A DNA stretch of 64,000 bases from Escherichia coli (GCF_030384885.1 NZ_CP128613.1); one strand, 5' to 3'; positions 28,380 through 29,003 are shown, numbered from the stretch's first letter. A program made the numbers and translations. Notes: generated from the sequence alone by a model not told the origin.

Positions 28380-29003
28380 ACCTCAAATAAAAATGCTGCT
28401 GTTAGTTTTTCGTAAGAAAAACTTTGGGGTTGACGTTGACCTTGGTTTTGCTTTTAGCCTGCGGCAGCAACCGTCGGTAGACCCCACACACTGCGTAGCA
28501 GTGTATAGGTGGGCATTGTCTTTAAGAAAATAAGCCAATGTAAAATGCCCCTCTTAATAATCAATACGAAATATATGTATGGTTGTAAAATAATACGCCG
28601 GGTTAAGCGGCGCAAACTGGATTAAAGGTGTAGGTTTCACGTCTGCAGGACAAAAAGAGTAAAGAAAAGGCCCGTAAGGGCAAAAGAAGTATTAATTATT
28701 CCCGCCGTAAGGCGGGATAGCGTTAATTGAAGAAAAAAGCTAATAAAACACGGAGTGTTATGTGTTGCACAATTCACAGGTTGAGGTGGAGAAATAGAGT
28801 TAAAGTTGACAGGTGAAAATAAAAGCACGAATGCGCAAAAATAAGTAACGCGTAGAGTGCGGGGTATTTTAAGTTAGTAATTACTATCACATGTGTTGCA
28901 CTATTTTATTTATGGACGTTCCAGAACTATTTTCTTTGACAAAACGGTGTAAATTTGACGTTATTCATCTTTGTGATAATTAAATACGTATAAACAACAA
29001 GAG
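28380..29003. promoter_or_regulatory. Candidate oriT / mob promoter region
   Basis: Adjacent GTAA-loop hairpins GCCCGTAAGGGC (28669-28681) and CCCGCCGTAAGGCGGG (28701-28716); two copies of ATGTGTTGCAC (about 28760 and about 28890); immediately upstream of mobA. Confidence 0.4.

Follow-up and report, generated by a model that had tools for sequence, protein, structure and literature searches.

The window, which is the whole stretch of 64,000 nucleotides of Escherichia coli DNA that was analysed (NZ_CP128613.1 in GCF_030384885.1), contains a relaxase gene and a small divergent gene, separated by a gap that runs from 28370 to 29013 (644 nt as far as the ATG of the divergent gene, traD). The relaxase ORF matches Pfam PF03389 (MobA/MobL) at 2.6e-54 and the NCBIfam MobQ model with 249 bits, at a cut-off of 200. 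Its nearest solved structures are NES (4HT4, 1.9e-23) and the MobA protein of RSF1010 (2NS6, 1.4e-10), and in an alignment to both, Tyr25 and the histidine motif (here HDLDGKNPHAH) are present. The N-terminus also matches models of Ti TraA with scores well below their cut-offs, and Pfam and NCBIfam show neither a primase nor another known family in the C-terminal part. An earlier note on this DNA had placed a candidate origin of transfer (oriT) between mobA and a small divergent ORF. This arrangement is correct: the MobQ relaxase gene lies on the left, and the ORF on the right (29004-29141) encodes the N-terminal part of a Ti-type TraD. Ti-type TraD is a small relaxosome accessory protein and not the coupling protein, which is an ATPase. 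In E. coli CI5 the gene is intact, encodes 101 amino acids and matches PF06412 at 9.9e-11 (41.8 bits versus a cut-off of 22.3). Compared with it, one A has been lost from an A-run at about 29121-29126 (A7 to A6), which splits the traD of the window into two ORFs. Either the gene is a pseudogene or the sequencing erred in the homopolymer. If the frameshift is real, this copy of the island is without its relaxosome accessory protein, and because of the frameshift its transfer function may be impaired.

Both genes belong to an island of 22.4 kb, bounded by a 14-bp direct repeat, CCCTCTCTCCGCCA, at 11870-11883 and 34279-34292. It is inserted at serU, with the repeat at the 3' end of tRNA-Ser(CGA) (11794-11883), and the integrase gene (32897-34114) is found at the island end far from the intact tRNA. 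The backbone comprises DUF6387, H-NS, DUF4756, RepL-like, MobQ relaxase, TraD, PilS, PilV and P4-type integrase genes, the DUF6387 gene being a neighbour of the att site opposite the integrase. The gene set of the EARL islands is thus present (P4-like integrase, MobA/MobL with TraD, type IV pilin with a PilV-like protein), and E. coli CI5 is syntenic. ROD21 of Salmonella Enteritidis and ICEKp258.2 of the epidemic Klebsiella lineage ST258 are both EARL islands (PMC6035254, PMC10763509, PMC10655114), and the backbone in the window is identical in kind to theirs (PMC6035254, PMC10763509). Published EARL islands sit at tRNA-Asn, whereas the bounding repeat of this copy is at tRNA-Ser(CGA) and tRNA-Asn (10727-10802) lies outside the island, so that here an EARL-type backbone has been integrated at another site. 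The window copy also differs from its EARL relatives in its frameshifted traD and in its cargo of Thoeris-like, NACHT and TIR genes.

Judging by the genes at 21608-23705, 14832-16682 and 31967-32797, the cargo resembles an anti-phage defence set. Among its products are a Thoeris-like pair (a SIR2 and STALD protein with a TIR protein of the ThsB type), a protein with a NACHT domain and, apart from these, one whose TIR domain is of the CAP12/Pycsar-effector type. At 29713-31759 the island encodes a major pilin of the PilS type and a tip adhesin of the PilV type, the latter with a Shufflon_N domain, and among the other island ORFs scanned against Pfam there was no pilus-assembly, Rci recombinase or secretion-system family. 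As a speculation, PilS and PilV may work together with the thin pilus of a helper plasmid. The core-genome flank at 34100-38100 has about 94.6% identity to nearly all E. coli and 100% identity to one strain labelled E. coli 2013C-4282, which suggests that the window comes from a divergent Escherichia lineage; in the strain with the identical flank, the tRNA-Ser lies beside zinT without the island. Rfam matches in the window that lie outside the gap are EFASI RNA, RseX and DsrA, at 10078-10207, 48079-48168 and 56504-56590.

Of 5426 complete E. coli genomes, 781 have the gap itself, at 80-95% identity and always on the chromosome. Plasmid-borne or orphan copies of the oriT were considered and discarded, as just three plasmid records matched a query of 801 nt, each of them with an adjoining relaxase gene of the MobQ/MobA family. 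The papers on the EARL family postulate a cognate oriT (PMC6035254, PMC10763509, PMC10655114, PMC3976249), and in the literature searched no paper was found that maps the oriT of ROD21, ICEKp258.2 or EARL islands. A 2026 preprint has clustered relaxase-upstream regions into oriT-region families, including rQ1 and rQ2. The features of the gap and of its two genes are collected in Table 1.

Table 1. Genes, hairpins, repeats and conserved boxes in and beside the relaxase-traD gap (positions in the window; a slash marks the predicted nick)
Feature	Position	Strand	Remarks
MobQ (MobA/MobL) relaxase gene	26888-28369	-	493 aa; Tyr25 and HxDxxxNPHAH motif
Third GTAA hairpin, AGTTTTTC-GTAA-GAAAAACT	28404-28423	+	35-54 nt upstream of the relaxase start
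Tandem GTTGAC hexamers, GTTGACGTTGAC	28429-28440	+	conserved block; up to four copies in one locus (L026)
Palindrome GCCTGC-G-GCAGGC	28457-28468		window copy without one G
Small inverted repeat GTC-ggta-GAC	28473-28482	+	CCC-ggta-GGG instead in 4 loci
Nic-proximal inverted repeat ACACTGC-gta-GCAGTGT	28488-28504	+	predicted relaxase-binding hairpin
Predicted nic core ATAGGTGGG/CATTG	28505-28518	+	nick predicted between G28513 and C28514
Conserved box CAATGTAAAA	28534-28543		with 28515-28520 forms a promoter-like site on the - strand in the window
Terminator-like hairpin CGCCG...CGGCG with T-run	28594-28614	- (relaxase-coding strand)	in roughly half of the loci
Hairpin 1, GCCC-GTAA-GGGC	28670-28681	+	98.5% of cells paired, 34 sequences
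Hairpin 2, TCCCGCC-GTAA-GGCGGGA	28700-28717	+	about 90% of cells paired; T-A pair at base included
Repeat copy 1, ATGTGTTGCAC in conserved box ATGTGTTGCACAATTCACA	28760-28778	+	TGTTGCACAATTCACAGG kept in about 28 of 35 loci
Conserved box AAAAATAAGTAACGCGTAGAGT	28837-28860	+	ATAAGTAACG kept in nearly every locus having the region
Repeat copy 2, ATGTGTTGCAC	28891-28901	+	GTGTTGCA kept in most loci
Ti-type traD	29014-29317	+	frameshifted; from alignment with the intact E. coli CI5 gene

For comparison, the upstream regions of 36 loci from other Enterobacterales genera, with relaxases that are 70-93% identical in protein, were aligned. The most conserved block spans about 28455-28519 and reads TTAGCCTGCGGCA(G)GCAACCGTCGGTAGACCCCACAC, then an inverted repeat, then ATA(G/A)GTGGGCATTG. 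Over the 36 loci its mean DNA identity to the window is 87%, compared to 74% for the first 720 nt of the relaxase gene and 48% for the adjoining spacer at 28520-28660. Within the block, the palindrome is invariant save for the G indel and one C-to-T change, and in the small inverted repeat that follows it the alternative form has two pairs changed on both sides. Further strongly conserved blocks are TGTTGCACAATTCACAGG, for which up to 3 mismatches were allowed, the second copy of GTGTTGCA, and AAAATAAGTAACG.G.AGAGT. Extra mini-hairpins flank the nic block in many of the relatives (L004-L040; 28445-28455 and 28520-28530 in window positions), such as an inserted TTTCC-GAA-GGAAA on its upstream side and CTCC-TAAA-GGAG on its downstream side. 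Near this block, small hairpins have apparently been gained and lost repeatedly.

It is inside this block, within 28455-28518, that the inverted repeat ACACTGC-gta-GCAGTGT is directly followed by ATAGGTGGGCATTG; the + strand from 28483 to 28519 reads CCACACACTGCGTAGCAGTGTATAGGTGGGCATTGTC. Of the 36 related loci, 35 have the exact core GTGGGCATT, and the remaining locus deviates from it by a single base. The sequence TAGGTGGGCATT at 28506-28517 shares 8 of 12 bases with the MOBQ core TAAGTGCG/CCCT and is a variant rather than the canonical core, with 4 of 12 positions different; among the four bases that directly follow the predicted nick, two are changed (CATT here versus CCCT). In relatives that have ATAAGTGGGCATT or TAAGTGGGCATT, 9 of the 12 bases agree. 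No other MOBQ-like core exists on the + strand of the gap, and the full nic core is found once in the 64-kb window. The predicted nick is 9 nt past the perfect repeat, where 8-9 nt would be expected for MOBQ, and the core lies 136-149 nt from the relaxase start on the opposite strand, where 50-200 nt upstream would be expected. The position of the nick, predicted on the + strand by analogy, is an extrapolation from the alignment with RSF1010.

The hairpin next to the core has 100% of its cells paired in 37 sequences. It is found as the window form, as ACGCTCAC-gaa-GTGAGTGT, as ACGCTCAC-gaa-GTGAGCGT and as ACACTC-gaa-GAGTGT; the distal stem has been exchanged with compensation, and the base, ACAC/GTGT, is fixed. 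This fits the report that MobA of RSF1010 contacts the base of the stem only (PMC4814116). Independent events behind the covariation are few, as both sides have changed in just three pairs, and it is therefore supportive and not decisive. A second nic-like sequence, an exact copy of the nic-core 10-mer GGTGGGCATT at 34248-34257 near attR, in the stretch from the integrase start to the right att repeat, was considered and rejected. It has no preceding repeat, is absent at the equivalent position in E. coli CI5, and about 0.1 copies are expected per window, and it is probably there by chance. Patterns for the nic sites of RP4 (YATCCTGY), R388, F, ColE1 and R64, all of them approximate and our own, gave no convincing match in the gap, and the IHF consensus gave none.

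The earlier note based its oriT on other features, all of which are indeed there: two GTAA hairpins, GCCCGTAAGGGC at 28670-28681 and CCCGCCGTAAGGCGGG at 28701-28716, and two copies of ATGTGTTGCAC, at 28760-28770 and 28891-28901, both on the + strand and 131 bp apart. The third GTAA hairpin, nearer to the relaxase gene, had been missed. Its stem is essentially invariant (99.3% of the cells paired in 37 sequences), and it varies in the loop only (GTAA, GCAA, GAAA, GTGA or GTCA). For hairpin 1, the loop can be GTAA, GCAA, GAAA or GAA; an alternative form is GTCC-GAA-GGAC, and a compensatory change from C-G to T-A is seen in 13 sequences. Hairpin 2 is conserved mostly by sequence, which is kept in about 28 of 35 loci and absent in three (L028, L031, L033); its loop is GTAA, GTGA, GCAA, GTTA or GTA, and no clean compensatory changes were found in it. 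The 8-mer GTGTTGCA occurs in the 64-kb window just in the two repeat copies. In other genera, about 28 of 35 related loci have both GTAA hairpins and the first repeat again, and the features exceed what chance would give. Being conserved, the GTAA hairpins and the ATGTGTTGCAC repeats are probably functional.

This conservation, including the compensatory change in hairpin 1, could be read as a sign that nic lies at or beside the GTAA hairpins at 28670-28717, as the earlier note had it, with the ATGTGTTGCAC repeats as binding sites of a relaxosome accessory protein. A TraD-family accessory gene adjoins, and the GNRA/GNA loops are similar to those, GAA and GTA, that known nic-proximal hairpins have. 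However, a scan of the gap found no nic-like core of MOBQ, MOBP or MOBF type adjoining these hairpins, and the sole MOBQ-like core on the + strand is the one at 28506-28517. In addition, seven islands (L019, L028, L031, L033, L007, L009 and L016) keep the nic core and miss hairpin 1, hairpin 2 or the repeat, and the hairpins are 300-350 nt from the relaxase start, whereas the nic of relatives is 50-200 nt away. A nic site at the hairpins is therefore highly unlikely. The element that matches MOBQ, at 28488-28518, is 150-200 nt to the left of them and was not mentioned in the earlier note. The comparison gives good support to an oriT within 28380-29003, and the features cited as evidence for it are not the nic determinant. 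Because several islands with the core lack them and no nic-like core adjoins them, the GTAA hairpins and repeats are auxiliary elements on the leading (3') side of the predicted nick and not the cleavage site. Candidate roles for them are sites for TraD or the relaxase, operators or promoters of the divergent operons, and single-strand or RNA signals.

The last of these roles leads to another explanation, in which the run of GNRA/GNA mini-hairpins would be a structured non-coding RNA or a signal on the transferred single strand, for example a priming site in the leading region. In the 634 nt searched there are three perfect GNRA-loop hairpins on the + strand, all with GTAA loops, as compared to 0.14 expected from composition-preserving shuffles (about 20-fold, P ~0.0005), and none on the - strand. 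The G..A of the loop is kept through all its variation, relatives have inserted hairpins of a similar kind, as described above, and hairpins 1 and 2 closely follow the predicted nick on its 3' side, in the part that would be first into the recipient. There is also the terminator-like hairpin on the - strand (28614-28594), which was called in L029 as well, and the mobilisation of SGI1 is reported to need a small RNA encoded by the element itself (PMC9299015). On the other hand, no RNA family was found in the gap by Rfam, neither with gathering thresholds over the whole window nor with permissive thresholds over 28300-29100. DNA folds of both strands show local hairpins only, by which a long stem of the single-strand-promoter type was rejected, and the fold z-scores are modest (-2.25 for the + strand, -3.57 for the - strand). 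Hairpin 2 has no clean compensatory changes, and palindromic protein sites in duplex DNA would yield the same covariation. This explanation is thus very unlikely. As terminators, the GTAA hairpins were also rejected: there is no T-run after them on either strand, and the terminator scan did not call them. A narrower version would have the mini-hairpins on the transferred strand (28404-28423, 28670-28681, 28700-28717 and those inserted in relatives) as a module of ssDNA (or RNA) signals specific to this island family, and not as binding sites in duplex DNA. We regard this as rather unlikely; if it is true, possible roles of the module are to prime complementary-strand synthesis or to control early events of leading-region entry.

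It is also conceivable that the conserved blocks mainly serve the transcription control of the divergent mobA and traD-pilS-pilV operons, and that the oriT is an unused relic. A promoter-like site on the - strand, from 28544 to 28515, overlaps the nic core, and another on the + strand (28773-28800) overlaps repeat copy 1. In other islands the inserted genes are found downstream of the conserved blocks, as predicted for an operon promoter. In ROD21, deletion of the mobA homologue SEN1980, the sole published genetic test in the family, left the very low transfer frequency (~1e-8, dependent on pSLT) unchanged (PMC3976249), which argues against current use of the relaxase/oriT system. But with 9 of 12 matches the promoter-like sites are weak, and shuffled sequences contain at least as many of them. 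Loci with an inserted hairpin do not preserve the spacing of the site formed with the 28534-28543 box, and no equivalent was found in L011 or L029; a mobA promoter that overlaps nic can therefore be proposed only tentatively. Moreover, one would not expect a relic oriT to surpass the relaxase coding sequence in conservation between genera, or its hairpin to change with compensation. Transcription control with a relic oriT is thus unlikely as the main explanation, and it is largely compatible with a working oriT, as oriT and divergent promoters coexist in known MOBQ systems.

Taken together, the gap probably contains the cognate MOBQ-type oriT of a ROD21-like (EARL) mobilisable genomic island, judged from sequence comparison. 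The relaxase family, the core (as a variant), an inverted repeat 5' of the core, and the position and strand relative to the relaxase gene are all those of MOBQ origins. While the sequences, their conservation and covariation and the architecture common to the family are directly seen, we infer that the core is cut, at which base this happens, in which direction the DNA moves and what the auxiliary elements do. Modelled on RSF1010 MobA and the staphylococcal NES, transfer would start with excision of the island and binding of the relaxase to the base of the 28488-28504 hairpin on the + strand. Tyr25 would then cut the single-stranded core at the predicted position, between G and C, and the relaxase would remain on the 5' end. 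The + strand would be exported 5' to 3' via the type IV secretion system of a co-resident conjugative element, so that traD, pilS and pilV would enter the recipient first and the relaxase gene last. As ROD21-like islands are widespread, an oriT of about 65 bp with a predicted nick gives a handle on their movement, and it allows mobilisation tests with helper plasmids, oriT-null controls and searches of genomes for orphan copies. It also serves as a caution that the most eye-catching hairpins in a relaxase-proximal gap need not be the nic site.

Compared with known systems, this is an oriT of an ordinary, known type that reveals no new mechanism. In the window, repeat and core read CCACACACTGCGTAGCAGTGTATAGGTGGG/CATTGTC. 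The corresponding sequences are CACGCGAACGGAACGTTCGCATAAGTGCGCCCTTACGGG in pSK41 and CGTCGCGTCAGCGACGTATAATTGCGCCCTTGG in pTiC58. The oriT cores of these two plasmids, ATAAGTGCGCCCTT and TATAATTGCGCCCTT, were checked in the plasmid records, where both match at 100%. In both plasmids the repeat and core are on the strand opposite to the relaxase gene, 76-124 nt upstream of it, and small divergent accessory genes follow the core (traC, traD and traG in pTiC58). In RSF1010, the repeat and core are CAGTTTCTCGAAGAGAAACCGGTAAGTGCG/CCCTCCC, cleaved in vitro by MobA, with the experimentally cleaved core given as ...GAGAAACCGGTAAGTGCG/CCCTCCC (PMC4814116). The consensus for MOBQ has been given as NWACCNNTAAGTGCGCCCTYNN (PMC3832669). 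In Paracoccus, the plasmids pMARC3 and pMOS6 have a predicted oriT, ATAAGTGGGCACTT, between divergent mobA and mobC, in a clade called MOBQ3 (PMC3832669). Like the window core it has the G-for-C change and an A after GC; the host class and the plasmid context are different, and the Paracoccus oriT is itself a prediction.

As in RSF1010/R1162 (MOBQ1), an inverted repeat (with a GAA loop in RSF1010) precedes a core of the TAAGTGCG/CCCT type, the relaxase has Tyr25 and the histidine motif, and the element is mobilisable and not conjugative. Unlike in RSF1010, the accessory genes are others, the similarity of the relaxase is weaker than to NES, and the core has 8 of 12 bases in common. The resemblance to pTiC58 (MOBQ2, with its oriT between traA and traCDG) is in the PF06412 traD gene divergent from the relaxase gene. 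There, CGTCGC-gtca-GCGACG and TATAATTGCGCCCTT are found 76-115 nt upstream of traA on the opposite strand. The window differs in that it has no traC, no traG coupling protein and an enterobacterial host range, and its relaxase is far shorter than the Ti TraA models (751-1102 positions). For pSK41/pLW1043/pGO1 (MOBQ), NES is the closest solved relaxase domain, and the layout is identical: a GNA-loop repeat with ATAAGTGCGCCCTT on the opposite strand, 79-124 nt upstream, and a small divergent ORF. The differences here are that ATAGGTGGGCATTG deviates from the pSK41 core at 4 positions, the accessory gene is a Ti-type traD, there are extra conserved hairpins and repeats downstream of nic, and the element, a mobilisable island in the chromosome, has no secretion system of its own. 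The same combination extends to very different phyla. Relaxases from cyanobacteria, Bacillales, Desulfobacteraceae and Collinsella that are only 30-48% identical have a repeat and ATAAGTGCGC at the same place and on the same strand upstream (one example, L043, reads GCACACGTTGCGTAGCAATGTATAAGTGCGCCCTT), and a dozen or more such distant loci share the layout of the window, with the core upstream on the opposite strand and the divergent accessory gene or genes beyond it.
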